The notes below the pieces were generated by a model that did not search any database, was not told where the DNA came from, and was given only the letters and a program-made list of their open reading frames with translations. Position numbers and translations under genes: made by a program. From the sequence record PZ386952.1: 61,166 nt of DNA; one strand, 5' to 3'. Position 1 is the first letter of the stretch; each line of letters begins with the position of its first letter. This document shows, in pieces, positions 14,619 through 61,166 of the stretch. The stretch comes from a phage.

Positions 14619-17269
14619 TGCCACCAGCAATAATTGGAGCAGCAATAGCTTTAGGCGCTTCCGCTGCCGCTGCGGCGGGGTGGATTGCTACGGGTGTAGC
14701 TTTAGCTATTGGTATGGCTGCAACCGCGGCAGGTGCTCTTCTAACTAAGACACCTAATACAAACTTTAATGCTTATAAAGGTCAACAAGAACGTAAGCAA
14801 GTTTTACGAGCAGCCGCAGCCCCGCGTACCGTAGTCTATGGGACAACCGTTGCTTCCGGCGTTATGGTGTTTGCGGAAGAGCAACCGGGCGATCAAGAAG
14901 AAGACGAATTGCTGCACATGGCTTTAGTTATAGCAGGACACCCTCTTGATGGTATTGGGGATATATGGCTTGGGGATGACCTTGTTCAAACGTTTGAGGA
15001 TTATGTTACTTGGGAGTTTCATAATGACCGTCAAACTGTAGATCCTTTCATGAAAAAGAATTGTCCTTCCTGGAAGGAGGATATGATTGGTAAAGGGATT
15101 GCATGGCTTCGCATTAGTTTTAAATTTAATGCGGAGAAATTCCCGTCAGGCTTACCAAACGTCAAAATGCTGAAACGTGGTCGCCGTATATACGATCCAC
15201 GTTCCGGACAAACTGTATTCAGCGATAACGCTGCATTAGTTATACTCGATTATTTCCGTACTTACCTAAAACGTAAAGACGAGAATATTAACTGGGATCA
15301 GTTTAAAGAAGCGGCTAACATCTGCGATGAATACGTTCCTAACGCTGATGGTTCTACTGAACAGCGTTATAGAATTAATGGTGAGTTTGAAGTAGATGAA
15401 GCCCCTTCTAAGATCCTGGATGCTATGCTACAAGCTTGCGGTGGCGAACTGACATATGTAGCAGGTAAACATGGCTTGCTTGTTGGTGCATATTACGGCC
15501 CAGCTACAATGACGCTTGATGAAAGCTGCATTGCTGGAGATATTAAAATTGTTCCGGAGACTTCTTACAAGGAGCGCACCAACACCATTACAGGGACATT
15601 TATCGACCCGAAGCAGAACTATGTTGAAGCTGACTTCCCTCCAGTTGTGGTTAAGGAATGGGTGGAAAAGGATGGCGGCGAAATAACTCAGGACATGGAT
15701 TTCCGTTTTGTTGCTAGCGAGTATCAAGCTCAACGTCTAGCTAATATTGTTTTACGTCGTAAACGTGTCGGACGTACAATTGAAATCCCTTGTAACATGA
15801 GGGGTTATAAGTTCCGCCCCGGAATGTATGTAAAAGTTACTATTACGCAAATCGGTATGAAGAATGTCGAAATGCGTGTCACCAAATGGTCGTTTAACCC
15901 TAAAGGCGGAGTTAACCTAACATTACGCCAGGACTTCCTGGAAATGTGGGACGATGTTATTGGTAAACCTATGGAGCGTCCGGACCTTGTAGACCTACCT
16001 ACTGGTGGCGTTGCTCAACCTCAAAACCTTCAGTATCAAATACTACAGATCAGCGATGTTGTACAGGGGGTTTTATCCTGGACCAATATGGGACAGGTTG
16101 CGTATAACCGCGTAGCCGTGCGACAGGGGGGTACAACCATTTGGACCGCACAAGTCCCAGGCCAAAGTGTTCGCGTTACTGGGTTGCTGCGGGGCGCGTA
16201 TACAGCACACGTTCAAGCTGTATCCTATAGCGGCGCGGTGTCACCGGAAGCTTATCTGGAATTTAATATTCAAGCGCCACCTCCGCCAACGTCTGTTGAA
16301 GTGCAACAGGGTTACTTTGCAATAACCTTAATTCCTAAGTCTTCAGATATTGCAAACGTTAGTACACAATATGACTTCTGGACTTCTGGTGAAACAAGAC
16401 TTTCTTCTGCTTCTACAGATGTCGTAGAGCGCGATGCAACTCGTAAAGGTATGGGTACAACCTGGACTTCGGAAGGTTTGAAGAATGACCACACTTATTA
16501 CTGGTATGTACGGACAATTAACGCGTTCGGATCGTCTGCATTCGTAGAAGTTGCTGCAACATGCTTCACAACTGCTACAGAGCTAATGCCACAGATTGAT
16601 GCAGAACTCAAAAAGACTGAAACGTTTAAAGAGCTTACTGCTGAAATTACTGGTGTTAAAGATGGTGTTACTCAGCTTAGTCAAACTGTAGTAGAAACCG
16701 AACAACGTTTAAGTCAAAGTATTAGCAGCGTTCAGGAAAGCTTAAATGATGTTAGCGCAACTGTACAGGAGACAAGTAAAGCAGTTGTTGATCTGGAAGG
16801 CAATGTTAACGCTCAATGGGGTGCTAAAGTACAGGTTGATAATAAGGGGCAAAAATACGTTGCTGGTATCCAGTTAGGTATGGAGGGCTCCGGTGGTGCT
16901 GTTCAATCTTACTTCATGGTGAGTGCAAACAACTTTGCTGTTTATAACCCGACAAACAGTGTAGCTGAATTAGCCTTTGTGGTTAAGAACGGTCAGGTGT
17001 TCATGAAAGCTGCATTTATCGAAAACGGATCTATTGATAACGCTAAGATTGGTAACTATATTCAGTCCAACAACTATGTAAGCGGTTCTTCTGGCTGGAG
17101 GATTACTAAGGACGGGGCCTCGGAGTTTAATAATGTTGTCGTCAGAGGTGAGATACATGCAGCGGTTGGTAAATTTGGATTCGACGGGAATGGAGGTATA
17201 ACCATCAATAGTAACGGAATTACCGTCCCATTATCGGGCGGAGGTAAAGTTGTAGTTGGTAGATGGTAA
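14618..17269 (+). CDS. tail tip / host specificity protein (gpI-C-terminus-like N-terminus fused to gpJ-like)
   Basis: ATG at 14618 with GGAGGG RBS (track start 14606 is in frame); Gly/Ala-rich hydrophobic N-terminus then large beta-rich body; 883 aa. Confidence 0.6.
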   Translation: MPPAIIGAAIALGASAAAAAGWIATGVALAIGMAATAAGALLTKTPNTNFNAYKGQQERKQVLRAAAAPRTVVYGTTVASGVMVFAEEQPGDQEEDELLHMALVIAGHPLDGIGDIWLGDDLVQTFEDYVTWEFHNDRQTVDPFMKKNCPSWKEDMIGKGIAWLRISFKFNAEKFPSGLPNVKMLKRGRRIYDPRSGQTVFSDNAALVILDYFRTYLKRKDENINWDQFKEAANICDEYVPNADGSTEQRYRINGEFEVDEAPSKILDAMLQACGGELTYVAGKHGLLVGAYYGPATMTLDESCIAGDIKIVPETSYKERTNTITGTFIDPKQNYVEADFPPVVVKEWVEKDGGEITQDMDFRFVASEYQAQRLANIVLRRKRVGRTIEIPCNMRGYKFRPGMYVKVTITQIGMKNVEMRVTKWSFNPKGGVNLTLRQDFLEMWDDVIGKPMERPDLVDLPTGGVAQPQNLQYQILQISDVVQGVLSWTNMGQVAYNRVAVRQGGTTIWTAQVPGQSVRVTGLLRGAYTAHVQAVSYSGAVSPEAYLEFNIQAPPPPTSVEVQQGYFAITLIPKSSDIANVSTQYDFWTSGETRLSSASTDVVERDATRKGMGTTWTSEGLKNDHTYYWYVRTINAFGSSAFVEVAATCFTTATELMPQIDAELKKTETFKELTAEITGVKDGVTQLSQTVVETEQRLSQSISSVQESLNDVSATVQETSKAVVDLEGNVNAQWGAKVQVDNKGQKYVAGIQLGMEGSGGAVQSYFMVSANNFAVYNPTNSVAELAFVVKNGQVFMKAAFIENGSIDNAKIGNYIQSNNYVSGSSGWRITKDGASEFNNVVVRGEIHAAVGKFGFDGNGGITINSNGITVPLSGGGKVVVGRW

Positions 17270-17272
17270 CAA

Positions 17273-17290
17273 AAGGGGCGAAAGCCCCTT
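17273..17290. terminator. bidirectional stem-loop between convergent genes
   Basis: AAGGGGC-GAAA-GCCCCTT perfect hairpin at junction of + strand tail tip gene and - strand ORF. Confidence 0.55.
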
Positions 17291-18270
17291 TAATACATAT
17301 TTGGTAATGCGATAATTGGTGTCGGGATAACAATATTTCTTTCAGGTGCTGTTAGGGAGCCTAAGCTGTAGTTCCCTATCCGCTGATTTCTTTCAGCGCG
17401 TACTTTATTGTTATACATATGAACACCATTATAACGCACATTGTGATAACCGCCTGTATTAATTGTCCTCATTCCGTAGAACCCAAGTTGAATTAATCTA
17501 TCGCCAATATCCTGATCACTTGGTGTCAAAGTTAAAGTTTTATCAAATAAGAAAGGTTTCTTTACTGTGGAGAACGTAACCTGACCAGCGTTATTTGTCA
17601 TTGTAATACCGTCGCCCGGAGTTGGTGGGGTATTATTAAATATCACCAGCTCCATTGTTACACTAGCCGAAACATCATCCGTCCCAGAATAGGAAGAGTT
17701 TCTGACAATTATATTATTACCGTCAAACCCAACGGATATTCCGTTAGCATTCCATCTTGCAAAAGGGATACCCGATACTGGAAGTTGCATACTTCCGTTA
17801 ACTGTAACAGTACCAGCATACTGACAAGTCATTAATTTTGCATTATTTGAAATAGCTGTGAAATCCGTAGAGTTTGACACATACAGACCCGTGTTATATG
17901 TAGAAGCAGGTAATACTTCCATAATAGATCCTGCCCATTGTGGGAGTTTTCCAGTATACCCAAAAGGATTACCACCCCTTAAAATAACACCAGAATTACC
18001 ATTCCTGGAGATGGAGGAGATGTAGAAAGGTGAAGGGACTACAAGCCCCTGATCGTATACTTCGATAATTTCAACAGGTTTAGTAGGAATTACAAAAACT
18101 TCAGAAGCTTGGGTAAGAGTTGTATTAATTGTTAAAGTTTGATCAGACTGACAACGCTGATTAAAGTTAGCACAAAAAGATAAAGCCCGTAGACCTGACG
18201 TTATTTGCATTGCAGGTCTACCGTCATTGTAGTTTATGTAAATACCTTCAGGCATCATAGCCTCCAACAA
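17290..18270 (-). CDS. hypothetical beta-rich protein, candidate receptor-binding / host-range protein
   Basis: 326-aa Ser/Thr/Asn/Gly-rich ORF on the opposite strand inside the tail module; no signal peptide or lipobox. Confidence 0.4.
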   Translation of the reverse strand: MLEAMMPEGIYINYNDGRPAMQITSGLRALSFCANFNQRCQSDQTLTINTTLTQASEVFVIPTKPVEIIEVYDQGLVVPSPFYISSISRNGNSGVILRGGNPFGYTGKLPQWAGSIMEVLPASTYNTGLYVSNSTDFTAISNNAKLMTCQYAGTVTVNGSMQLPVSGIPFARWNANGISVGFDGNNIIVRNSSYSGTDDVSASVTMELVIFNNTPPTPGDGITMTNNAGQVTFSTVKKPFLFDKTLTLTPSDQDIGDRLIQLGFYGMRTINTGGYHNVRYNGVHMYNNKVRAERNQRIGNYSLGSLTAPERNIVIPTPIIALPNMY

Positions 18271-18381
18271 TGTGGTTAAAGATGATAGACAATATTGTTT
18301 TATATTCTAATTTAATTTACCATATTTGTATGCCATGGTGCATCCATTAATTGATCAACTCTGCAAGACAAGAGGTAAAAA

Positions 18382-21300
18382 ATGGCAACTCGTTTATATG
18401 GTGTTTTGCTTGACGGCTTAAAAAAACCAATCGTTAATGCAACAGTCGTTCTCTTAGCAAAAGGAAACACGATAACCGTCCTTAACGGTAGCGAAGCAAT
18501 CTTTAAGACCGACGCTCAGGGTGCGTACAATGTTACTGTGCAATCAGGATACTATAAAGTAATTATAGGTCCACAAGGTACTGAACCTTATAAAGCTGGG
18601 GAAATTGCAATATATGCTGATAGTCAGGAAGGGTCGCTTAACAATTATTTAGTTAACTGGGCGGAAGAAGATCTAACACCTGAAGTTATTAAACAAGTCA
18701 AAGAGCTTGTAGCGGTTTCAGAACAGTATTCGCTTCAAGCTGGAAGGTCAGCTGCCGCTGCACAAGCGGATGCTACAGATGCACGCAATAGTAAAGCTTC
18801 CGCTGCCCAATCTGCCGCAGATGCACTTGTGTATAAAAATGATTCCAAAGCTAATGCTGACGCCGCTAAACAAGCACAAGCTGGGGCTGCTGGGTCTGCT
18901 AATACCGCTAACGCCGCTGTCGCCACAATACGGGCTATACAACAGGATGTTACAGCATCCAAAGACCGAGCAATAACTGCTGAAACCAATGCAAAAGCTA
19001 GTCAAGATGCGTCTGCAAACTCAGCCGGGGCAGCAAAAGTATCGGAAACCAACGCAAAGTCCAGTGAAACTAAAGCTAAAGAGTACATGCAAACGGCGCA
19101 AAGCCTTGCCAGCCCTTTGACGCAATACAATTGGCCCGTTGAAACCAGCAATAAAGACGCTTACGTTAAGATTGCTAAACTTAGCGACCCAGGGGCATCA
19201 AGCTGCCACTTAACGCTAATGGTTACAAATGGTGGCGGCTACGGTGTAACTTACGGGAATATTGACTTTATAGAGATCTCCGCTCGCGGTCTTAACAGTA
19301 CAGGTGAAATAACCAGCGAAAACGTAATTAAGTTTTTAAGTGTTCGCCGCCTCGGTTCACCAAGCCTTTCCAATAGTAGTCAAATTAATTATGGCCTGGT
19401 AGGAGGTGATGGTTATTTTGAGGTATGGTGTTATCAGCGAACATTTATTAAAGAGACAAAGGTAGCTGTGCTGGCGCAGACTGATAAAAACGTGGAGTTA
19501 TACATTCCCGAAGGATTTGTTACTCAAACCGACGCACCCGCTGGATATATAGAAAGCAAGGCAAGGAGGATTTACGACGAGGGAAACAAACCTACTAAGG
19601 AAGATGTTGGCCTTTCCAATGCTCTACTAAAAGGTGATTTTGGTCTTGGTGGTAGCGGGTCAGTAATAAGCGGTAAGATGAGCGATGCTGAGCTATTACA
19701 ATACCTGCGTAGTAGAGGAGGTCAATTCTGGCGCAGTGATAAGCCGACCGGAAGCACGGCGACCATTTATAGCCACGGTTCGGGTATATTCTCGCGTTGC
19801 GGCGATACGTGGTCAGCGATCAATATCGACTACTCAACCGGTAAAGTCAAGGTTTACGCTGGTAACGACAATGGACTTAACTCTGGTAATTTTTCCATCA
19901 ACGAGCTATACGGAACTAAAAATAAGCCGTCGAAATCGGATGTTGGACTTAGCAACGTAACTAACGATACGCAGGTTAGAAAATCCGGCGATGCTATGTC
20001 AGGTGACTTGATAATCCAAAAAGGTACACCTTCACTCTACCTGCGGTCAAAAAGTGGAACCGCCCATGTATGGTTCCAAAATGAGGATCAGTCGGAACGC
20101 GGCGTTATTTGGGCGCCTACAAATACTGCCTCGCTTGGTGAGATCCGCATTCGGGCAAAGACCGCTGACGGCACGGCTACCGGTGATTTTGTTGTTCGTC
20201 ATGATGGACGAATCGAAGCGAAAGACGCAAAGATCAGCTATAAGGTGTCCTCTCGTACTGCTGAGTTCGCCAACGACGACACGAACACGATGGTGAACAC
20301 GTTAAAAATCATCGGTAAACAGCATACGCCGTTACTTTTAACGCGTACCGGTTATTCTGAAAACCTATCCATTGGTTTTAAGGTTGACAACGTTGTCCAA
20401 AAATATCTCGGAATTAATGGCAGTGGAGATCTGTGTTTTGGTGATTATGCTGATCAAAAAACAAACAGTAGAGTAATTACACAAGCAATACTAGATAGCG
20501 GGGTAACCGCCAGTTCATTAACCACACAGAAGGTTATTCTTGGTAATGTTACTCTTCGACAAATAAACGAGGACGAAGGTACGGGGATAGGTGTTGTTTT
20601 TGATGGTTCTAACTCTACTGAAAACACCTTCGGAATAGTTAATACTGGTGGCGGTTCGGCTGTTTTTCACAATTATGCTAAACCAGCTGATTCCTCCGCT
20701 GTTAATACGGGCGTTCTGATAGGGGGCTATGGATCAAGACCGTGGACAGGTAGCACCTATACAGAACACGGTAATGTGTCACAACACTTTCTTATGGATG
20801 GTGTAGCTTCTGCAACTAACCACGGTGGTTGGTTCCGTTTGTTAACCACACCATTAAATGCGACCGTAGACGAGCGTCGACAGACATTTGCTACAAGTAA
20901 TAATGGCGACCTTTATATAGGTTACGATGTACCTATGGGGCTGTACAAGCTGGATGCTGCAAATTACAACGGCTTGGACATATTAAACGGTCGCGGTCTT
21001 AAGCAAGTAAATAACACCGCTAATGAAATAGCCTTAATCACTCCACGAAACGGGGCAACAGCTTATCTAAATTTCAGAGGTGTTGCTTTTGATGGCACAA
21101 TGACTGGAACTAAGGGTGCAACTCAGCAGGGTGACAACTTGTGGTTATCTTTTGCAGGACATGATGGTGTAAAATTCACCGGAGCGGCGGCTGGTATCAG
21201 AATACAGGCTTCAACTGGTTGGAGCACGACCTCAACTCAATGCGGGATAACATTTGCAACAACTGCTCAAGGGAGCACAAAAAGAACGGATAGATGGGCA

Positions 21301-21798
21301 ATAACAAGTGACGGCACTCTATCACCTGCACAAGATAATACTTACGCAATTGGTAGTTCTGTTAGCCGCGCTACGTCAATCTTTGCAACTAATGGTGCAA
21401 TACAGACATCAGATGCAAGAATGAAAACAGATGTCCGAAAAATGTCAGACGCCGAACTTTCAGCCGCTAAAGATATAGCCAGAGAGTTTGGCTTCTTTCA
21501 GTGGATTGAAAGAGTTAAAACGGAGGGTGACGCTGCAAGGTGGCACGCAGGTATAACAGTCCAACGCGTCATTAGTATTATGACTTCTTACGGCTTAGAC
21601 CCAATGGCGTATGGATTTGTCTGTTATGATTCTTGGGAAGAACAGGAAATTGTATCTGTAGACCCAGATAATCAATCGAAGACTATCACAAAAATAGAAG
21701 CAGGGGATAGATATAGCTTACGTTATTCAGAACTTAGCATTTTCATAGCCAGAGGGTTGGAACAGAGGATTTCGGAGTTGGAGGACAAACTTTTGTAA
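18382..21798 (+). CDS. long tail fiber with C-terminal intramolecular chaperone (peptidase S74-like) domain
   Basis: 1138 aa; Ala-rich repeat segment near N-terminus; C-terminal ~130 aa resemble the auto-cleaving chaperone domain of T5 L-shaped fiber / endosialidases (TSDARMKTDV junction). Confidence 0.75.
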   Translation: MATRLYGVLLDGLKKPIVNATVVLLAKGNTITVLNGSEAIFKTDAQGAYNVTVQSGYYKVIIGPQGTEPYKAGEIAIYADSQEGSLNNYLVNWAEEDLTPEVIKQVKELVAVSEQYSLQAGRSAAAAQADATDARNSKASAAQSAADALVYKNDSKANADAAKQAQAGAAGSANTANAAVATIRAIQQDVTASKDRAITAETNAKASQDASANSAGAAKVSETNAKSSETKAKEYMQTAQSLASPLTQYNWPVETSNKDAYVKIAKLSDPGASSCHLTLMVTNGGGYGVTYGNIDFIEISARGLNSTGEITSENVIKFLSVRRLGSPSLSNSSQINYGLVGGDGYFEVWCYQRTFIKETKVAVLAQTDKNVELYIPEGFVTQTDAPAGYIESKARRIYDEGNKPTKEDVGLSNALLKGDFGLGGSGSVISGKMSDAELLQYLRSRGGQFWRSDKPTGSTATIYSHGSGIFSRCGDTWSAINIDYSTGKVKVYAGNDNGLNSGNFSINELYGTKNKPSKSDVGLSNVTNDTQVRKSGDAMSGDLIIQKGTPSLYLRSKSGTAHVWFQNEDQSERGVIWAPTNTASLGEIRIRAKTADGTATGDFVVRHDGRIEAKDAKISYKVSSRTAEFANDDTNTMVNTLKIIGKQHTPLLLTRTGYSENLSIGFKVDNVVQKYLGINGSGDLCFGDYADQKTNSRVITQAILDSGVTASSLTTQKVILGNVTLRQINEDEGTGIGVVFDGSNSTENTFGIVNTGGGSAVFHNYAKPADSSAVNTGVLIGGYGSRPWTGSTYTEHGNVSQHFLMDGVASATNHGGWFRLLTTPLNATVDERRQTFATSNNGDLYIGYDVPMGLYKLDAANYNGLDILNGRGLKQVNNTANEIALITPRNGATAYLNFRGVAFDGTMTGTKGATQQGDNLWLSFAGHDGVKFTGAAAGIRIQASTGWSTTSTQCGITFATTAQGSTKRTDRWAITSDGTLSPAQDNTYAIGSSVSRATSIFATNGAIQTSDARMKTDVRKMSDAELSAAKDIAREFGFFQWIERVKTEGDAARWHAGITVQRVISIMTSYGLDPMAYGFVCYDSWEEQEIVSVDPDNQSKTITKIEAGDRYSLRYSELSIFIARGLEQRISELEDKLL

Positions 21799-21803
21799 TG
21801 ATA

Positions 21804-21830
21804 AAAAGCCCTGCAATGCAGGGCTTTTTA
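21804..21830 (+). terminator. rho-independent terminator
   Basis: AAGCCCTGCA-A-TGCAGGGCTT hairpin followed by TTTTA. Confidence 0.8.
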
Positions 21831-29059: not shown

Positions 29060-29287
29060 TTAGCGGTCCTCGATTGCTCTAATTGTGGTTAAGTCTAATT
29101 CACAAGTTGGAGGGTATCCATAAAGTCCCATTTGTTTTCCTTGTGCATTAAACCATGTACCTGACGGATCCTGCCACTGCTTAGGTGTCTTGTGGAGAAA
29201 TACTACTCTGTTTTCACCGTAATAATTAATTCTTACGCCTGTGTGAGTATATTTACGTTTTCCTTTTGGTCTTCTTAAGTTAGCCAT
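29060..29287 (-). CDS. hypothetical protein
   Basis: 75-aa basic ORF directly downstream of DpdA. Confidence 0.4.
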   Translation of the reverse strand: MANLRRPKGKRKYTHTGVRINYYGENRVVFLHKTPKQWQDPSGTWFNAQGKQMGLYGYPPTCELDLTTIRAIEDR

Positions 29288-30207
29288 CAGAACAACTCCA
29301 TTACACGATCACGGAATGTACCGTCATGGGTAGCGTTAATGTTTGCAGCAATTACACCATACGCCCATAAGTTGAAGGCGGCACGTGATTCATAGATTGT
29401 TGATAAACGTTCGTAAGTGAAACCGTTTTGCTCAAGGTATTTAAGGACAGCGTCTTGTTCAATTTCAGTTAATGTTGAGACATGCTTACCAAAATGATGG
29501 CGGTCCGGTGACTTATCCGATACGCGCATTGGTCCCCACGGAGGGGTAACCACACTTCCGAACGCTGCCGCTTGAATCCAGGAGGATGAGTCACAGCTAT
29601 ACCACGGATAACGCTCCATAATGGTTGTGGACGTAATACCAAACGCATGAAGTTTAATCTTAGCACGTCCGCTACCGTCGCAAATATATTTGTCCCACAT
29701 GCGGTCAAGCCAAGTCTTAAGCGTGTCCGTGGAACGCCCTACCATGCCCCCGATGGTGATATATTCGTAGTTCTTCATGTAGTATTCAAGATAGCGGAAG
29801 TCTTCACCAAAGTGAAAGCAAGGTAACGGTTTAGCACCGCGTGCTTCCATTTCAAGCTGATTACGGTAGGTTTGTAACGGATCGCCGATACCATCGAGTA
29901 CCGACGCCATTACCGCACCATCTTCTACCCGCAGGATATCTTTATTGCGTTTGATGTACTCACAGTATTCAACAATATCAATGTGAGCACCTAACGAGTG
30001 CGCAGAGAATGCACCGGAGTCAAGAAACACTTTAGCCCCGTCCGCACGCATCTGATCAACATACTTCTGACGTCCAACGTAGTGGTAGGATTCCAAAATA
30101 TGGGGCAGATTGCGCGTGATATTTTTCTCATGCTCTGACAGTTTTTCATAACGCTGCTGCCCAGGCATATATCCGTTCGTGTAAACTGCTGCCATAAAAA
30201 CGTTCAT
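29287..30207 (-). CDS. dpdA: 7-deazaguanine DNA transglycosylase (tRNA-guanine transglycosylase-like, DpdA)
   Basis: 306 aa; TGT-like FLDSGAFS aspartate motif; located in preQ0 biosynthesis cluster. Confidence 0.75.
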   Translation of the reverse strand: MNVFMAAVYTNGYMPGQQRYEKLSEHEKNITRNLPHILESYHYVGRQKYVDQMRADGAKVFLDSGAFSAHSLGAHIDIVEYCEYIKRNKDILRVEDGAVMASVLDGIGDPLQTYRNQLEMEARGAKPLPCFHFGEDFRYLEYYMKNYEYITIGGMVGRSTDTLKTWLDRMWDKYICDGSGRAKIKLHAFGITSTTIMERYPWYSCDSSSWIQAAAFGSVVTPPWGPMRVSDKSPDRHHFGKHVSTLTEIEQDAVLKYLEQNGFTYERLSTIYESRAAFNLWAYGVIAANINATHDGTFRDRVMELF

Positions 30208-30437
30208 TTTTGGAAGGGCCCTCCAAACTGGTCAATTAATTCTAAAGTACGCCACGCTTCATTAAATGCTTCGTCCGCGCGATGTTTAGCGTCAATAAGC
30301 TGCTGCTTTAAAACATCTGTAGGCGCATCATTCTGTATTGCAGAGCAAGCATCCGCAGTACCTGCTTTAAGCTGGTAGAATGCTGTCTCTAATATTAGTT
30401 GTCTTGACATATTTCCTCCAATGACTAAAAAGCCCAT
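30204..30437 (-). CDS. hypothetical protein in deazaguanine cluster
   Basis: 77-aa ORF between FolE and DpdA, overlapping DpdA start. Confidence 0.4.
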   Translation of the reverse strand: MGFLVIGGNMSRQLILETAFYQLKAGTADACSAIQNDAPTDVLKQQLIDAKHRADEAFNEAWRTLELIDQFGGPFQK

Positions 30438-30481
30438 ACCAGTATTATGACCGATATGGGCTTGATCTGTAAAGCTATCTA

Positions 30482-31084
30482 TTATTTACAAGCTTCAAGG
30501 AACTCACGGCGCCAAACAGCGCCCATTGTCCCATCCCCACGGTTGAGGGTAGCACCGCGGAATGCTTTAGTGATAGTAGAGCTACCGCATACCTGCTTAA
30601 CTCCGCGCGACTCCATGCACATATGTTTCGCGTCAATATAAACACAAACAGCTTTCGGGTCTAAATGCTCCTGGATAGCATCTGCAATCTGGTTAGTAAG
30701 ACGTTCCTGAACTTGCAGTCGACGACTAAAAGCATCCACAACGCGAGACAGCTTACTAAGCCCAACGATCTTCCCATTGGGGACATAACCCACAACAGCG
30801 CGACCGATAATGGGGGCCATGTGATGTTCACAATGACTGTATACAGGAATATCACGGACAATGACCATTTCATCCGTACCTTCCGCACCATCTTCAAAGG
30901 TTTTAAACAATCCAGCAATATCTACATCGTAACCGCCAAACCACGTTGCATAAGCTTTAGCGACGCGCGATGGAGTTTCAACCAGGCCTTCACGCAGGTT
31001 ATCTCCACCTTCAATCAACTTTAAAATCTTTTCAATGCTGTGCGAAATTTCTGCTCTGTTTGTCATCTTTGTAAATTCATTCAT
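30482..31084 (-). CDS. folE: GTP cyclohydrolase I
   Basis: VYSHCEHHMAPIIG and HMCMESRG active-site motifs; GLSKLSRVVD...QVQERLT. Confidence 0.9.
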   Translation of the reverse strand: MNEFTKMTNRAEISHSIEKILKLIEGGDNLREGLVETPSRVAKAYATWFGGYDVDIAGLFKTFEDGAEGTDEMVIVRDIPVYSHCEHHMAPIIGRAVVGYVPNGKIVGLSKLSRVVDAFSRRLQVQERLTNQIADAIQEHLDPKAVCVYIDAKHMCMESRGVKQVCGSSTITKAFRGATLNRGDGTMGAVWRREFLEACK

Positions 31085-31119
31085 GGTTTACAGTTTCCTT
31101 GTTGTTAATGTGGTCATAC

Positions 31120-31641
31120 TTACAGGCTATAGTTTACGTGACATTTCGAAGTTTCTTCGATGGTGCATTCTACAAGTTGAACACCATGTTCGTCAAGCAG
31201 TTGCGGCCCAATTACTTCAACCATGTACGCAGCTAAGTTTTCAGCGGTCGGGTTGAATGGAAGTGACACCAGCGAACCTAAATAATCCATTTGATCCCGA
31301 TGCGACATATTATCCATAGTTGTCGTATCTACAAATTTATTTAAGCTCTCAATGAGCGGATCATGCTCCCAGTGCAGGAACTTATGGTCCCAATTATCTT
31401 CCAACCACTGGCAGAGCGTAGTTTTAACCACACTGAAATCGATAACGCGACCAACGCTGTCCAGCTTATTTTTTTCTAAAGTTAACCCTTGCCCATTAGA
31501 GGGCGCAGTCACTTTCAACTTTGGTGCAACCTTAAAATGAAACTTATAGTTATGCCCGTGAAGGTGGCGGCATTTGCTTTCATGACCTACAACACGATGT
31601 CCAGCGCAAATTTCATGTGAACGAATTACTGTATAGCTCAT
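31120..31641 (-). CDS. queD: 6-carboxy-5,6,7,8-tetrahydropterin synthase
   Basis: CAGHR ... CRHLHGHNY (CxxxHGH zinc motif) typical of QueD/PTPS family. Confidence 0.85.
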   Translation of the reverse strand: MSYTVIRSHEICAGHRVVGHESKCRHLHGHNYKFHFKVAPKLKVTAPSNGQGLTLEKNKLDSVGRVIDFSVVKTTLCQWLEDNWDHKFLHWEHDPLIESLNKFVDTTTMDNMSHRDQMDYLGSLVSLPFNPTAENLAAYMVEVIGPQLLDEHGVQLVECTIEETSKCHVNYSL

Positions 31642-32207
31642 TTTAATACCTCTTTAGATTGTTCAATTTCCAGCGCACGTTGTGCGGACGCAATAATGTC
31701 TTTCAAATCTTCTACCAGACTTTTATGACCGCGTTCGCCCGGCTGCAACGCTTTTTTGATTAAATGCTGCAAAGCTGGGTTAGTTGTTTCCCAGGCGGTA
31801 AGAACATCATACACATCTACAACAATTGAAGCAACATGCCCGTCAATATCTTTACCGCGGATAAGGCGCTGGTATTTGGTCAGACGGTTATCTTCAGGAT
31901 AGCTCTGGTAACGTGCTTCTGGAACCGTCATTGCAATTTCCATCACTTCTTTAAACTCGTGCTCGGTTATCGGACCTTCGCTAGCTTGTTTGACGTAATC
32001 ATCCGCAACGATATATCGCCAGGCTACTACATCCGACATCTTGAGTGGTAATGGTTTGAGGTTGTCTGTATACCAATCCCAACCAGTTCTATAATTCTTA
32101 ACAATATTACCGCTAGCTAATTGAACTTCAAACTGCTCGTTTTGTAGAAAGATAGGCATCCCTTTGCCATCATGCTTGTGCCAAATTTTATTCAAATTAT
32201 CTTTCAT
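31638..32207 (-). CDS. hypothetical protein embedded in deazaguanine cluster
   Basis: ATG at 32207 with RBS GAGAGCG (track start 32252); 189 aa; no motif recognised. Confidence 0.45.
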   Translation of the reverse strand: MKDNLNKIWHKHDGKGMPIFLQNEQFEVQLASGNIVKNYRTGWDWYTDNLKPLPLKMSDVVAWRYIVADDYVKQASEGPITEHEFKEVMEIAMTVPEARYQSYPEDNRLTKYQRLIRGKDIDGHVASIVVDVYDVLTAWETTNPALQHLIKKALQPGERGHKSLVEDLKDIIASAQRALEIEQSKEVLK

Positions 32208-32209
32208 TT

Positions 32210-32689
32210 TTACGCTCTCGCTGTACGTGAATGAACTTCGTAAACAACCCAAAGGATCGCGGATGCTGTGAACTTACTTAAGCTCATTGCCACCATCGAT
32301 CCCGGATTAACAATACCTATAATACTTAAGAATACAATGGAGTCAATTGGTACAGCTACTAAAGAGCTGATAAATACACGTTGATGGAACGGCTTCTTAG
32401 TAATCGTGTATACCGCATAGTCCGCAAACTCGCTAAGAGCAAAGGACGCAACAGATGCAACTACAACCGCAGGATTGCCAAACACCCAGCTAAGGACGCA
32501 ACCGACAATCATTGCAGGGATAACGCCTTTACCAGCGTTACGCTGTGCATAGTCGCGCAACACAAAGATAATACCTACAAAGAAAGCCATCATTGGGACT
32601 ACGCCAAGCGGCGTGTTAAGCATCGGAAGGTAGGAAAAGCCCAGGTTTACGAATGTAATTGCAGCCAGATAAGCAACGATAAATTTCAT
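32210..32689 (-). CDS. membrane transporter, YhhQ/VUT-like (putative queuosine precursor transporter)
   Basis: 159 aa, multiple TM helices; placement between QueD and QueC; family assignment by context. Confidence 0.45.
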   Translation of the reverse strand: MKFIVAYLAAITFVNLGFSYLPMLNTPLGVVPMMAFFVGIIFVLRDYAQRNAGKGVIPAMIVGCVLSWVFGNPAVVVASVASFALSEFADYAVYTITKKPFHQRVFISSLVAVPIDSIVFLSIIGIVNPGSMVAMSLSKFTASAILWVVYEVHSRTARA

Positions 32690-32764
32690 ACTTTTGTTCT
32701 CCAGTTTTAACAGCGCTATTCGCTGGTTGTTGGGTTTAAAAGCTTTAGTAGTATAGTTGGGTTA

Positions 32765-32800
32765 CCGCACCCTAAACAATGCGCTAGCGGTGCGGTTTTC
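32765..32800 (+). other. stem-loop with + strand U-tract between YhhQ-like and QueC genes
   Basis: ACCGCACC ... GGTGCGGT 8-bp stem followed by TTTC on + strand. Confidence 0.35.
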
Positions 32801-32809
32801 GCGGTAAGA

Positions 32810-33532
32810 TCAAACGTGTTTGCTGTAAGCGTTATCCATAAATTCAGTGTAACCCTTAGCACGGAGTTTACACGCCGGGCATTCCCCGCAACCGTATCCC
32901 CAGTCATGCAGAGTACGACGGACGCCGTTATAGCAAGTATGGGACTGCTCAATTACTGTGGTTAAGAAGCCAACCTTATCCGCCAGCTCAAACGTTTCTG
33001 CTTTATTTAAACGCATAAGCGGAGTAACAAAATGGATATCTGTTTCATATCCAACGTTTAACGTAGCTTCAAGCAGATCTACAAACTGCTGGCGGCAATC
33101 CGGATAACCGCTATAGTCTGTTTCACAAACGCCTGTAACCACATATCGAGCTCCAACCTTCTGCGCGTAGGCGTGCGCGGTAGTCAGGAAAAGAGCATTA
33201 CGGTTTGGCACAAAGCTTGCCGGAAGGTTGTTGTGCTGTTCGTGATGTTCGTTAACATCACCTTCATTCCCGATTAAAGCGCTATTGCCAATCTGTCTCA
33301 AAGCAGGTAATTCAAAGACAACAAATGGGACATTATGCTCTTTACAAATTTGATTAGCACAAGCCAGCTCAATGTTATGACGTTGACCGTATGCAAAACC
33401 AATAGCGTAAACTTTATCATAGTTATTAAGCGCAAGACCTAGGCAAGTCACGCTGTCCTGGCCGCCAGACAGGACCACAACGGCGGAGTTATGATTTTTT
33501 ACAGGGAATACCAGTTTATCTAATTTATTCAT
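32810..33532 (-). CDS. queC: 7-cyano-7-deazaguanine synthase
   Basis: VVLSGGQDS PP-loop; C-terminal CYNG...CGECPACKLR zinc-binding Cys cluster; 240 aa, no fused amidotransferase domain. Confidence 0.9.
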   Translation of the reverse strand: MNKLDKLVFPVKNHNSAVVVLSGGQDSVTCLGLALNNYDKVYAIGFAYGQRHNIELACANQICKEHNVPFVVFELPALRQIGNSALIGNEGDVNEHHEQHNNLPASFVPNRNALFLTTAHAYAQKVGARYVVTGVCETDYSGYPDCRQQFVDLLEATLNVGYETDIHFVTPLMRLNKAETFELADKVGFLTTVIEQSHTCYNGVRRTLHDWGYGCGECPACKLRAKGYTEFMDNAYSKHV

Positions 33533-33533
33533 T

Positions 33534-33722
33534 TTAGAAACCTTTAAGACTAATATTGAGGTTAATGACTACTTGTTCCACCACCGCTTCAGATGTTACC
33601 TGACGCTGGTGTATTTCAAGCTCCGAATGTATTTTCTTTGATGCAGCGCGGCAAATAGCGTCATTCAACTCGTCCTGTAAACGTTGCATCTTCTGCATAA
33701 GAATCACAATCTCTTCATTCAT
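33534..33722 (-). CDS. small helical hypothetical protein
   Basis: 62-aa ORF between QueE and QueC. Confidence 0.35.
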   Translation of the reverse strand: MNEEIVILMQKMQRLQDELNDAICRAASKKIHSELEIHQRQVTSEAVVEQVVINLNISLKGF

Positions 33723-33927
33723 CTTCTACACCTTTAATATCACAAGGATTGATTGTTACATTTGACATCACAATTGGATGATTGCGTGCCCCGATTGTAC
33801 TAACGTGATTAATATCTAATTCTACATGCACTCCCTGCATGGTAGCGTGAGCAATTGCAGAATTAAGTTTTTTCTACCAGCTCAGTGATCATTTCCTGAT
33901 GCTGTTTCGCTTCTTCCAAAGTGATCA

Positions 33928-34635
33928 TTATTCCACCCCAATATATTTGTGAACCTGAAGCTGCAACGTGTACCCGTGTTTCATACAGCTTTGGACAACC
34001 GCTTGGATGTTACTGTGGTTAAGATCTTCATCCTGCTCGTCCATTGGCTGTAAATATATCTTACCCTTGAACCCCTTCGGAGGTCTAGCGATAAATGGCG
34101 TAGCTTGATGATCTAATGCTTGAAGAGGTAAACCGTCTTCCACGTTTACACAGCACGCTTTAAGTACATATTTAAATGCATTAGCGCGGTACAGCACAGA
34201 AGGATGAATCTTTGAAGTCTTAGGACTGCATACAATGACAGGTAGCTGGGAAAAGTTCTTAGGTAAAGGCATAGACCCATTAGTTTCAATTTGCACCAAA
34301 TAACCCCGCGATAACAGTTGTTCAATAAACGGGTTAATTTGCTGACGGAACGGTTCACCCCCAGTAATAACCACAAGTGAAGTGGTGTTGCCGGATTCCA
34401 GCTTACGGCTTTCAATTATGCGCATAATATCAACAATGTGATAAAGACTACGACCAATAGTATAATCCGTATCACAGCCCGGACATTGCAGGTTGCACCC
34501 AGCAAGACGCACAAATACAGCAGGCTGGCCGCAGAATGGACCTTCGCCCTGAATGGTAGAGAATACCGAATGCACGTCTAAATATATATCGTTTTCTTTA
34601 GAACGAGACTCGGGAGCTTGTTGATTAATATTCAT
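33928..34635 (-). CDS. queE: 7-carboxy-7-deazaguanine synthase (radical SAM)
   Basis: FSTIQGEGPFCGQPAVFVRLAGCNLQCPGCDTDYT signature with Cys triad; ITGGEP. Confidence 0.9.
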   Translation of the reverse strand: MNINQQAPESRSKENDIYLDVHSVFSTIQGEGPFCGQPAVFVRLAGCNLQCPGCDTDYTIGRSLYHIVDIMRIIESRKLESGNTTSLVVITGGEPFRQQINPFIEQLLSRGYLVQIETNGSMPLPKNFSQLPVIVCSPKTSKIHPSVLYRANAFKYVLKACCVNVEDGLPLQALDHQATPFIARPPKGFKGKIYLQPMDEQDEDLNHSNIQAVVQSCMKHGYTLQLQVHKYIGVE

Positions 34636-34644
34636 CTTAAATCC

Positions 34645-34679
34645 TCTAGTGAAAAAGAAAGCGCCTCATTGGGCGCTTT
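34645..34679 (-). terminator. rho-independent terminator (minus strand)
   Basis: AAAGCGCC-CAATGA-GGCGCTTT hairpin followed on - strand by CTTTTTCACT. Confidence 0.45.
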
Positions 34680-34704
34680 CATTATAACGTGATATGTTTT
34701 GATA

Positions 34705-50016: not shown

Positions 50017-50345
50017 TATTTACCTTCGTTAGCAATCACTTTTAACAGGGATGTAATCACATCCTTAACTTTATCAACAGTGTTGAAAGCTGTATCTAAC
50101 GTGGCATAAGTGCCAATATAATGATATTCGTCCATAACTCTGATAAATGCGCGATATGAAGTAGGCTCACCTTTTAATTCCGCCTGCTCATCCACAGGTT
50201 GACAATAAGCGCATACTTCCTCAGATTGCCCATCCCCTTGCCATGGAGCAGGAACTCGAAACGTTTCTTTACCCCTTAATGGAATTATTCTAGCCATAGA
50301 TCTGTTTCCTCCGCCATTCTTCGTATGCTGAATTATTTGCGTCAT
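50016..50345 (-). CDS. hypothetical protein
   Basis: 109-aa ORF. Confidence 0.35.
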   Translation of the reverse strand: MTQIIQHTKNGGGNRSMARIIPLRGKETFRVPAPWQGDGQSEEVCAYCQPVDEQAELKGEPTSYRAFIRVMDEYHYIGTYATLDTAFNTVDKVKDVITSLLKVIANEGK

Positions 50346-50589
50346 ATACTTCGCAAGCGTCTTTCATGCTGTCGTACAGTCCAAGGAAAGTTCGCCTTGT
50401 TTCCCCGCCTGCATCTACCCATGTTAATCGGGCGAGCCATTTACCCGTTTTGTAATCGAAAGTAACGCCCTCACGCCCGCTCACATTCTCCCGCGGCACT
50501 CGCGGTTTCCGGCGTGCAAGCCCGCGCCCTTTGAAGTTGCTCCCCGGCACCGTGCGGCACTTACGACCCACGACCAACCTCCGACACAA
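50290..50589 (-). CDS. AP2-like DNA-binding domain protein
   Basis: GVTFDYKTGKWLARLTWVDAGGETRRTFLGLYDS...ACEVYDA resembles AP2/integrase-type DNA-binding domain; start uncertain. Confidence 0.4.
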   Translation of the reverse strand: MCRRLVVGRKCRTVPGSNFKGRGLARRKPRVPRENVSGREGVTFDYKTGKWLARLTWVDAGGETRRTFLGLYDSMKDACEVYDANNSAYEEWRRKQIYG

Positions 50590-57699: not shown

Positions 57700-57885
57700 A
57701 TGACCAAACTATACGCCGGATTGTTTTTATTTGCGACGTTAATGTTCGCTGGCCTTTATACCTATACAGTAGTTGAACAACCTTCCACGGTTATCCGAAT
57801 CTTTGCAAGTACAGGGCTTTGTATCTGTCTTATTCTATTTGTTTTATGCATTGTTATTATCCAAGACCAAAGGAAAATTAAATGA
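57700..57885 (+). CDS. small membrane protein
   Basis: 61 aa with two hydrophobic helices. Confidence 0.35.
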   Translation: MTKLYAGLFLFATLMFAGLYTYTVVEQPSTVIRIFASTGLCICLILFVLCIVIIQDQRKIK

Positions 57886-58352
57886 CTGAAGAATGGAAAA
57901 TGATTCCTTTATTTCCAAAATATGAGGTTTCCACTTTAGGTAGAGTTAGGAGAGTTAATAACCACAGACCTCTGTCCGGCTACATCTTGGAGGGACGTAG
58001 ACGTTATACTTTGCGTCATAACGGTAAGAAATACGGAGTTGATGCTGCAAGACTGATGTGTTACGCGTTTAGAGGACTTATTGAAGGTTACGAGAAACTA
58101 GATGCAAGACATCTTGACGGCAATCCGTTAAATAATGTGTTATCTAATGTGGATTGGGGTACGCGTAAAGACAATATGATAGACATGGTTCACCATGGTA
58201 ATGCTTGCCATTCTTTTACAAAGGAAGAAGTGCTAAGTATTAGGGAAAGAGCAGCTAATGGGGAGAGTCAAGCTTCTATCGCAAGAAGTATGGGCAGGTC
58301 TGTAGCTCTTATTAACTGTATTGTATTAAGAAAAACCTATAACGAATATTAA
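57882..58352 (+). CDS. HNH homing endonuclease (NUMOD4 + HNH)
   Basis: IPLFPKYEVSTLGRVRR (NUMOD4-like) and HLDGNPLNN...WGTRKDN (HNH motif). Confidence 0.7.
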   Translation: MTEEWKMIPLFPKYEVSTLGRVRRVNNHRPLSGYILEGRRRYTLRHNGKKYGVDAARLMCYAFRGLIEGYEKLDARHLDGNPLNNVLSNVDWGTRKDNMIDMVHHGNACHSFTKEEVLSIRERAANGESQASIARSMGRSVALINCIVLRKTYNEY

Positions 58353-60631: not shown

Positions 60632-61166
60632 ATGAACGGGGCAAGTCAAGAGCAATATGATCGTGACTGGACGAATTACATCCAGTATGCAAATAGCTTG
60701 TCCGCTGAAGAGATGGCAATACGTGACAAAGTTGTTGCTGAGTACATGTTCGACTACAATTGGACTAACGCTTGCATGAGATGCGGGTTCAATGCTATGT
60801 TTGCACAGGAGCTTGGCCAACGCTTTGCCACGGACTGTTATGTTCGATGGAAGCTCAAGGAGATTGAAAGATCCCGTGTTCAACGTACTTCTGAGCAAGC
60901 TAACATTGAAGCAGACCTTGAGCGTCAGCATATCATTGAAGCATTAAAACGTGAAGCTCATTATACAGGACCGGGATCTTCTCAAGCTGCTAGAGTGGCT
61001 GCATTGGGCAAGCTTGCACAAATTTATGATTTGGATGCTCCCAAGAAGGCTAAAATTGATGTTACTAACAGAGGCGGCGTAATGATAGTCCCTGCTGTAG
61101 CAAATATTGACGAATGGGAAAAAACTGCATCCGAGTCTCAACAACGACTAGTTAAAGAGACTGAAG
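60632..61166 (+). CDS. terminase small subunit candidate (3' partial, runs off window)
   Basis: ATG with AAGAAAGGGGG RBS; 178 codons open to the window end; not in ORF track; sits just before terminase large subunit if the molecule is circular. Confidence 0.45.
   Translation, partial: MNGASQEQYDRDWTNYIQYANSLSAEEMAIRDKVVAEYMFDYNWTNACMRCGFNAMFAQELGQRFATDCYVRWKLKEIERSRVQRTSEQANIEADLERQHIIEALKREAHYTGPGSSQAARVAALGKLAQIYDLDAPKKAKIDVTNRGGVMIVPAVANIDEWEKTASESQQRLVKETE

Follow-up and report, generated by a model that had tools for sequence, protein, structure and literature searches.

The closest described relative of the gene cluster considered here belongs to the Escherichia coli phage CAjan, a Seuratvirus whose DNA carries 2′-deoxy-preQ0 (dPreQ0). 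Liquid chromatography-tandem mass spectrometry (LC-MS/MS) of CAjan DNA gave 70,628 dPreQ0 per 10^6 nucleotides (nt), about 32% of G, and dADG, dG+ (2′-deoxyarchaeosine), dPreQ1 and dQ were each below 6 per 10^6 (PMC6884629). A second study measured 44 dPreQ0 per 10^3 nt (PMC7544227), and the values across studies amount to roughly 23-32% of G (PMC6884629, PMC7544227). The modified sites are 5′-GA and 5′-GGC (PMC7544227). A CAjan dpdA mutant contains no dPreQ0 and has lost restriction resistance (PMC6884629). Deletion mutants of folE and queC fall under the nanopore modification cutoff, and LC-MS/MS of the queC mutant revealed ~12-fold less dPreQ0, the remainder coming from host preQ0 (PMC7544227). 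In vitro, modified CAjan DNA is resistant to many restriction enzymes (PMC6884629, PMC7544227), and Seuratvirus phages withstand type I and type II restriction-modification in vivo (PMC8594841). We found a closely similar cluster on the minus strand, at 29287-34635, of the phage sequence record PZ386952.1, a stretch of 61,166 nt that we call the window and to which our coordinates refer. With a probability of roughly 93%, we consider this block to be the dPreQ0 DNA-hypermodification cluster of a CAjan-like Seuratvirus.

Other described systems resemble the window cluster in part. Enterobacteria phage 9g (Nonagvirus) shares its genomic neighbourhood and the order queE, queC-type gene, queD, folE and dpdA, and the 9g DpdA is 69% identical to that of the window. 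However, the 9g QueC is a Gat-QueC fusion of 471 amino acids (aa), whereas the window QueC is stand-alone, and the 9g cluster, unlike the window, has no annotated yhhQ-like gene. The 9g product is dG+ and not dPreQ0 (PMC6884629). Pseudomonas phage iggy (Queuovirinae) has a dPreQ0 cluster whose DpdA targets only GA, corresponding to ~16.5% of G; its QueC is unrelated in sequence, and yhhQ is missing (PMC10484667).

The bacterial Dpd system of Salmonella Montevideo (dpdA-K) also uses a DNA preQ0 insertase, DpdA (7ui4), with the fold of tRNA-guanine transglycosylases (TGT). It differs from the window cluster in two respects: no DpdB, DpdC or DpdD-K genes were identified in the window, and the bacterial system acts as a defence, in the manner of restriction-modification, rather than against restriction. 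Insertion affects less than 0.1% of G in bacterial Dpd systems, but up to ~30% with phage DpdA1 (PMC10516641). Archaeal ArcTGT and bacterial/eukaryotic TGT enzymes share two catalytic Asp residues and a preQ0 pocket with the window DpdA (PMC7544227). By contrast, sequence identity to them is 10-15%, the window protein has 306 aa compared to 576-577 aa for ArcTGT chains, and the substrate of phage DpdA is double-stranded DNA, unlike that of the tRNA-acting enzymes.

Against the full CAjan genome, 52.3 kb of the 61.2-kb window is collinear, at ~90-96% identity. Judged by its sequence, the window is a complete Seuratvirus (Queuovirinae) genome, that of a CAjan-like E. coli siphovirus, since it is circularly permuted relative to CAjan (window 60632-61166 corresponds to CAjan 1-535) and the small terminase gene spans its ends (1-23 and 60632-61166). 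As in CAjan, the cluster has the DNA polymerase/clamp genes on one side and the helicase on the other. A megablast search with the cluster region matched 49 phage records, 34 of which extend over 80% or more of it, with ~90-94% identity. Nearly all of these 34 records are E. coli Seuratvirus phages, e.g., CAjan, Seurat, Skure and several BASEL phages. Because no record in the phage collection was above ~94% identity over ~86% coverage for the two large window segments tested, the window is probably a distinct Seuratvirus isolate, new at the species level, and not a known phage sequenced again.

Six open reading frames (ORFs), all on the minus strand, could be named. They are transcribed in the order queE, queC, a gene for a short YhhQ/VUT-like membrane protein, queD, folE and dpdA, which bears out the six-gene block that the initial annotation had delimited. 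Four further ORFs, small or without an assigned function, are interspersed in the block and were absent from that annotation. CAjan gp35-gp45 has the same arrangement of queE, small ORFs, queC, the yhhQ-like gene, a 189-aa ORF, queD, folE, a small ORF and dpdA. The window differs from CAjan in that gp39 is absent, the gp44 homologue is frameshifted, and FolE, QueD and the 189-aa ORF are represented by an allele with 75-82% aa identity. Our reading of the block draws on the gene identities, the modelled fold of DpdA, its conserved active-site residues, the near-identity to CAjan and the lack of tailoring enzymes in the scans described below.

The biosynthesis enzymes were recognized by profile matches and by their motifs. 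FolE matches PF01227 (1.4e-63, 214 bits, cutoff 27) and TIGR00063 (199 bits, cutoff 181.6), and carries the zinc/catalytic motifs CEHH and HMCMESRG. QueD matches the PTPS family, PF01242 (1.1e-20, 74 bits, cutoff 22.4), and PHROG 2389 (2e-53), and has the CxxxHGH motif in the form CRHLHGH. The QueD-specific model TIGR03367 reaches 59 bits, under its cutoff of 89; an insertion of ~50 aa is the probable cause. The five best NCBIfam matches of QueE are all QueE models (5e-28 to 1e-20), PHROG 2076 matches at 2e-67, and the translation has an IQGEG motif and the CxxxCxxC cluster as CNLQCPGC. QueC matches PF06508 (1e-74) and TIGR00364 (242 bits, cutoff 150), with a SGGQDS PP-loop and a C-terminal Cys cluster, C..CGECPAC. 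In the Gat-QueC fusion of 9g, its alignment is confined to residues 241-456, with 29% identity. Thus, the initial annotation was right to describe a stand-alone QueC of 240 aa, which corresponds to the QueC half of the fusion, and every motif that it quoted is present in the translations.

Two of these enzymes are nearly identical to their CAjan counterparts, namely QueC (99.2% aa identity; 43 synonymous and 2 non-synonymous differences) and QueE (97.9%; 30 and 6). FolE (82%; ~48 and ~55) and QueD (75%; ~52 and ~71) are more distant. DpdA is 100% identical over its 306 aa, with 40 synonymous differences and no non-synonymous one. The counts for DpdA, QueC and QueE point to strong purifying selection.

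If the window phage behaves like CAjan, as we infer from this likeness, FolE would convert GTP to dihydroneopterin triphosphate, from which QueD would make 6-carboxytetrahydropterin. The radical-SAM enzyme QueE would turn this compound into 7-carboxy-7-deazaguanine, and QueC, using ATP and ammonia, would convert the latter via an amide to 7-cyano-7-deazaguanine (preQ0). After replication, DpdA, a TGT-fold transglycosylase, would flip guanines out of the double-stranded phage DNA and exchange them for preQ0 at 5′-GA-3′ and 5′-GGC-3′ via a covalent Asp206 intermediate. DNA modified in this way would be protected from many restriction enzymes of types I and II. The putative role of the YhhQ/VUT-like membrane protein, an accessory part, is probably to salvage external preQ0. 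The pathway, gene roles and anti-restriction purpose that the initial annotation had assigned agree with the profile matches, with the orthology to CAjan and with the literature.

By analogy to CAjan, the expected modified base in the window phage is dPreQ0, and this expectation is well supported because of the orthology, rather than because of gene content. The initial annotation had named dPreQ0, as opposed to dG+ or dPreQ1, on the grounds that tailoring genes are absent. Its choice of base is upheld by the near-identity to CAjan, but the argument from absence is insufficient alone, since QueC homologues (QueC*) have been proposed as ADG synthases in other phages (PMC10516641). As to the absences themselves, a six-frame tblastn search of the window with the 9g Gat domain found nothing (best E 0.88). 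The window regions not shared with CAjan encode tail-fibre/receptor-binding alleles, DUF6453, HNH/NUMOD4 and AP2-like proteins and small ORFs, and ten ORFs from these regions have no deazaguanine-tailoring domain. No QueF, ArcS or other preQ0-tailoring gene was found, where the domain scan covered the ORFs not shared with CAjan rather than every ORF. What remains of the genome is common to the window and CAjan, in whose DNA dPreQ0 is the sole modified base of this kind (PMC6884629).

The same cluster could in principle lead to a final base other than dPreQ0, i.e., dADG, dPreQ1 or dG+. The amide dADG might arise if QueC halted at the amide or by hydration after insertion, and dPreQ1 might arise through a host QueF. 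Gene content alone does not set the product, DpdA enzymes can be promiscuous (PMC10516641), and phage Rosebush, with an identical gene set, has traces of dADG (PMC6884629). We nonetheless consider a different final base very unlikely. The proteins in question, QueC and DpdA, are the CAjan proteins or almost so, and in CAjan dADG, dPreQ1, dG+ and dQ are under detection (PMC6884629, PMC7544227). Moreover, the Gat domain and tailoring domains were not found in the searches just described.

For the product, dPreQ0, as for gene requirements, target motifs and protection from restriction, our expectation is thus an extension of the CAjan experiments. GA and GGC contexts together comprise 28.1% of all G in the window, and the share is equal in CAjan, for which published values of 23.96% and 4.28% (PMC10484667) agree with ours. 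The earlier proposal that preQ0 replaces guanine therefore fits the orthology of DpdA, but is refined to these two contexts, i.e., to ~28% of G and not all G.

Several observations weigh against a functional dPreQ0 cluster. The profile hidden Markov model searches that had been suggested as a check along with the initial annotation placed FolE, QueC and QueD above Pfam cutoffs. They left QueE under the curated cutoff of every NCBIfam QueE model and under that of Pfam Radical_SAM (27.2, cutoff 29.5), and DpdA was missed by both databases. Specifically, Pfam TGT (PF01702) matches neither DpdA nor any of 81 relatives, and the NCBIfam model of bacterial DpdA (NF041059) gives 16.9 bits, far under its cutoff of 200. 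The YhhQ-like protein barely passes PF02592 (27.8 bits, cutoff 27.2), is under the cutoff of TIGR00697 (22 bits, cutoff 51) and has no significant BLASTP similarity to E. coli YhhQ (E >1). The gp44 homologue is split by one extra A, there being a run of six A's here and of five in CAjan. Finally, the FolE-QueD-189-aa block (~30440-32260) has 83-85% nucleotide identity to the best phage record, while the flanking dpdA and queC have 96% and 94% to CAjan. The activity of this divergent block is an assumption. Because the block is divergent and its flanks are near CAjan, the cluster is a mosaic, with part of it from an unsampled lineage.

Since neither PF01702 nor NF041059 recognizes DpdA, we assign it only to the phage DpdA1 branch of the TGT fold, and not to canonical TGT or bacterial DpdA. 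Judging from the aligned relatives, this branch is beyond the reach of the Pfam TGT model. The protein does match PHROG 887 (8e-96), which is labelled ‘queuine tRNA-ribosyltransferase’. A sequence search against PDB chains found nothing, and a shallow profile of 34 sequences found nothing relevant in the PDB. A search of a library of representatives at 50% identity gave 6500 relatives, and 82 diverse ones were aligned. A profile of this diverse set has 7ui4 as its top match among PDB sequences, with the GGMVP and S-x-D-S-T motifs aligned, although E is only 0.065.

Residues proposed to form the catalytic site and preQ0 pocket of CAjan DpdA, including the two catalytic Asp residues (PMC7544227), are all present in the window protein: D63, S64, F67, D105, H132, G153, G154, F189 and D206. 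Among the 82 relatives, D206 is invariant, and conservation is 90% or higher at D63, D105, H132, G153, G154, F189 and G217.

The failure of the Pfam and NCBIfam profiles made a fold comparison necessary. A first AlphaFold model of DpdA, based on close homologues only, had a predicted local distance difference test score (pLDDT) of 60.8 and a top Foldseek match to ArcTGT at E 0.03, and was replaced. The model from the diverse 82-sequence alignment has a pLDDT of 96.9 and a predicted template modelling score (pTM) of 0.92. The top 50 Foldseek matches listed for it in the PDB are all ArcTGT, TGT or bacterial DpdA, with probability 1.00. ArcTGT structures 1j2b and 1iq8 match at E ~1e-7 (1.4e-7 for 1j2b), and the bacterial DNA preQ0 insertase DpdA (7ui4) matches at 2.2e-5 (TMq 0.58). 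According to the model, then, the window DpdA has the TGT-type (beta/alpha)8 barrel fold.

This fold is that of tRNA-guanine transglycosylases, and many records label genes of such clusters ‘queuosine biosynthesis’ or ‘queuine tRNA-ribosyltransferase’. Both facts would suit an auxiliary metabolic module for queuosine/tRNA modification in the host, in which the TGT-like protein acts on tRNA and not on DNA. We give this idea almost no credence. The identical CAjan protein is needed for dPreQ0 in DNA (PMC6884629), DpdA has only 306 aa, and its fold also matches the bacterial enzyme that inserts preQ0 into DNA. In addition, no QueF, QueA or QueG was found to complete queuosine synthesis.

Some metagenomic relatives of DpdA (P0122, P0128, P0137, P0146 and P0182; ~600-637 aa) have an insertion of ~316 aa, located two residues before the catalytic Asp, that the window DpdA lacks. 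In the two sequences that we read, P0122 and P0128, RYPW[Y/H] is followed by the insertion, C...VTGN, and then by SVDSSSW. With Cys at its start, and Asn and then Ser at its end, the insertion looks like an intein. A Pfam scan of the insertion found no Hint or endonuclease domain.

The cluster might also be decaying or inactive in the window phage, leaving its DNA unmodified. Apart from the frameshift in one small ORF and the divergence of FolE and QueD from CAjan, a selective cause for such a loss can be named: 7-deazaguanine-modified DNA is the target of specific glycosylase defences, which can select for loss of modification (bioRxiv 10.1101/2025.10.29.685425). In phage HK243, DpdA was inactivated by a change of G217 to Glu (bioRxiv 10.1101/2025.10.29.685425). 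However, G217 is kept in the window DpdA, if the HK243 numbering applies to it. None of the six functional ORFs is interrupted, their catalytic motifs are retained, and the differences of DpdA, QueC, QueE and the YhhQ-like protein from CAjan are overwhelmingly synonymous. Inactivity is accordingly a most improbable explanation, and a working dPreQ0 cluster is preferred.

Mechanism, product, motifs and phenotype were established for CAjan between 2019 and 2023, so the system is already known, as the initial annotation had recognized; it is the signature cluster of Seuratvirus. The value of finding it here is practical and does not lie in a new mechanism. In the window phage, we predict dPreQ0 in place of the ~28% of guanines that lie in GA or GGC. 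Its DNA is accordingly predicted to withstand many restriction enzymes of types I and II, e.g., EcoRV (17 sites in the window) and HaeIII (60 sites); AanI/PsiI (29 sites), NsiI (12 sites) and SspI (25 sites) are predicted to cut it. Nanopore base-calling might be disturbed, and the phage is predicted to be sensitive to glycosylase defences that target 7-deazaguanines.

We now turn to the accessory ORFs. The YhhQ-like protein is shorter than E. coli YhhQ (159 versus 221 aa) and has ~4 hydrophobic stretches in a crude hydropathy scan. The transporter of the initial annotation is retained as a putative remote, short member of the VUT family, a marginal assignment given the profile scores above: PF02592 is in its favour, and TIGR00697 and BLASTP are not. 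Its identity to CAjan gp41 is 97.5%, and the two genes differ by 32 synonymous changes and 4 non-synonymous ones (ratio of non-synonymous to synonymous divergence, pN/pS, 0.04). To judge by this pattern, purifying selection acts on the gene as strongly as on the enzymes. Yet a CAjan yhhQ mutant is modified as in wild type (PMC7544227). Because the gene has such a low pN/pS but is dispensable in CAjan, it likely has a selected function that was not revealed in the laboratory.

The small ORF beside dpdA matches PHROG 20065 (2e-40), aligned from residue 10, and is 93.5% identical to CAjan gp36 (pN/pS 0.13). The 62-aa ORF matches PHROG 24420 (3e-43) and is 84% identical to CAjan gp43 (pN/pS 0.15). 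A permissive Pfam scan of the cluster ORFs without an assigned function, including the small ORF beside dpdA and the 189-aa ORF, found no family. The split gp44 homologue is either a pseudogene or the result of a homopolymer sequencing error, to judge by the alignment. CAjan gp44 is annotated as ‘radical SAM domain-containing’. CAjan gp39 (107 aa; CAjan 31193-31516, between queD and gp40) is absent at the 31641/31638 junction in the window. This gene is seemingly absent in phage OddieOddie too, whose alignment to the block is one unbroken segment of equal length.

The 189-aa ORF matches PHROG 23361 at 5e-103 and has 78% aa identity to CAjan (~54 synonymous and ~52 non-synonymous differences). 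A domain comprising its C-terminal ~80 aa was found in 719 phage records, for the most part from phages of Salmonella and E. coli; those listed as examples belong to other groups and have genomes of 31-49 kb. The same domain is found in 9g gp07. The CAjan ‘delta-yhhQ’ deletion is given at position 31850, with a genome 550 bp shorter (Table 1 in PMC7544227). From that table, the deletion appears to take the 5′ part of gp40, which is homologous to the 189-aa ORF, as well. We considered the 189-aa ORF as a component of the pathway and rejected this as unlikely: the domain is widespread, mostly in phages of other groups, and the deletion that apparently clips gp40 leaves modification unchanged. 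For these reasons, the ORF is probably not pathway-specific.

It is doubtful that the accessory genes as a group (the VUT-like protein and the 68-, 62- and 189-aa ORFs) truly take part in DNA modification in natural hosts. If they did, their roles may be to salvage preQ0 in hosts or environments that limit its de novo synthesis, or to channel preQ0 away from the tRNA pathway of the host.

Table 1. Features of the cluster region in the window
Feature	Coordinates	Strand	Length or basis
dpdA, DNA guanine/preQ0 transglycosylase (phage DpdA1 type)	29287-30207	minus	306 aa
Small conserved ORF	30204-30437	minus	77 aa as listed, likely 68 aa from ATG at 30410
folE, GTP cyclohydrolase I	30482-31084	minus	200 aa
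queD, 6-carboxytetrahydropterin synthase	31120-31641	minus	173 aa
189-aa ORF	31638-32207	minus	PHROG 23361
YhhQ/VUT-like membrane protein, putative preQ0 (queuosine-precursor) transporter	32210-32689	minus	159 aa
queC, preQ0 synthase, stand-alone	32810-33532	minus	240 aa
Conserved 62-aa ORF	33534-33722	minus	PHROG 24420
Frameshifted remnant, homologue of CAjan gp44 (70 aa in CAjan)	33715-33928	minus	alignment to CAjan
queE, radical-SAM 7-carboxy-7-deazaguanine synthase	33928-34635	minus	235 aa
Terminator-like hairpin with T-run, upstream of queE	34657-34680	minus	consensus scan

The hairpin in Table 1 (GAAAGCGCC...GGCGCTTTC, then TTTTT) has a 9-bp stem with 6 GC pairs and is placed between queE and an Ala/Lys-rich 270-aa ORF upstream. 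It is a possible 5′ boundary of the transcription unit. Terminator-like sites across the region show no enrichment, so the hairpin is weak evidence. A promoter-like TTGTAA-18-TATAAT occurs just upstream of it; the promoter scan of the region showed no enrichment compared to shuffled sequences.

Elsewhere in the window, the receptor-binding/lateral tail-fibre region (17137-21822) has no nucleotide match to CAjan except for 614 bp at 78% identity. It contains a fibre gene of 1138 aa (18382-21798) and, on the opposite strand, a 326-aa DUF6453 ORF (17290-18270; PF20051, 5e-124). Two ORFs are inserts relative to CAjan. One, of 99 aa (50290-50589, minus strand), has a weak AP2-domain match (E 2.5e-4) that is under the Pfam cutoff. 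The other, of 156 aa (57882-58352, plus strand), resembles HNH/NUMOD4 homing endonucleases.

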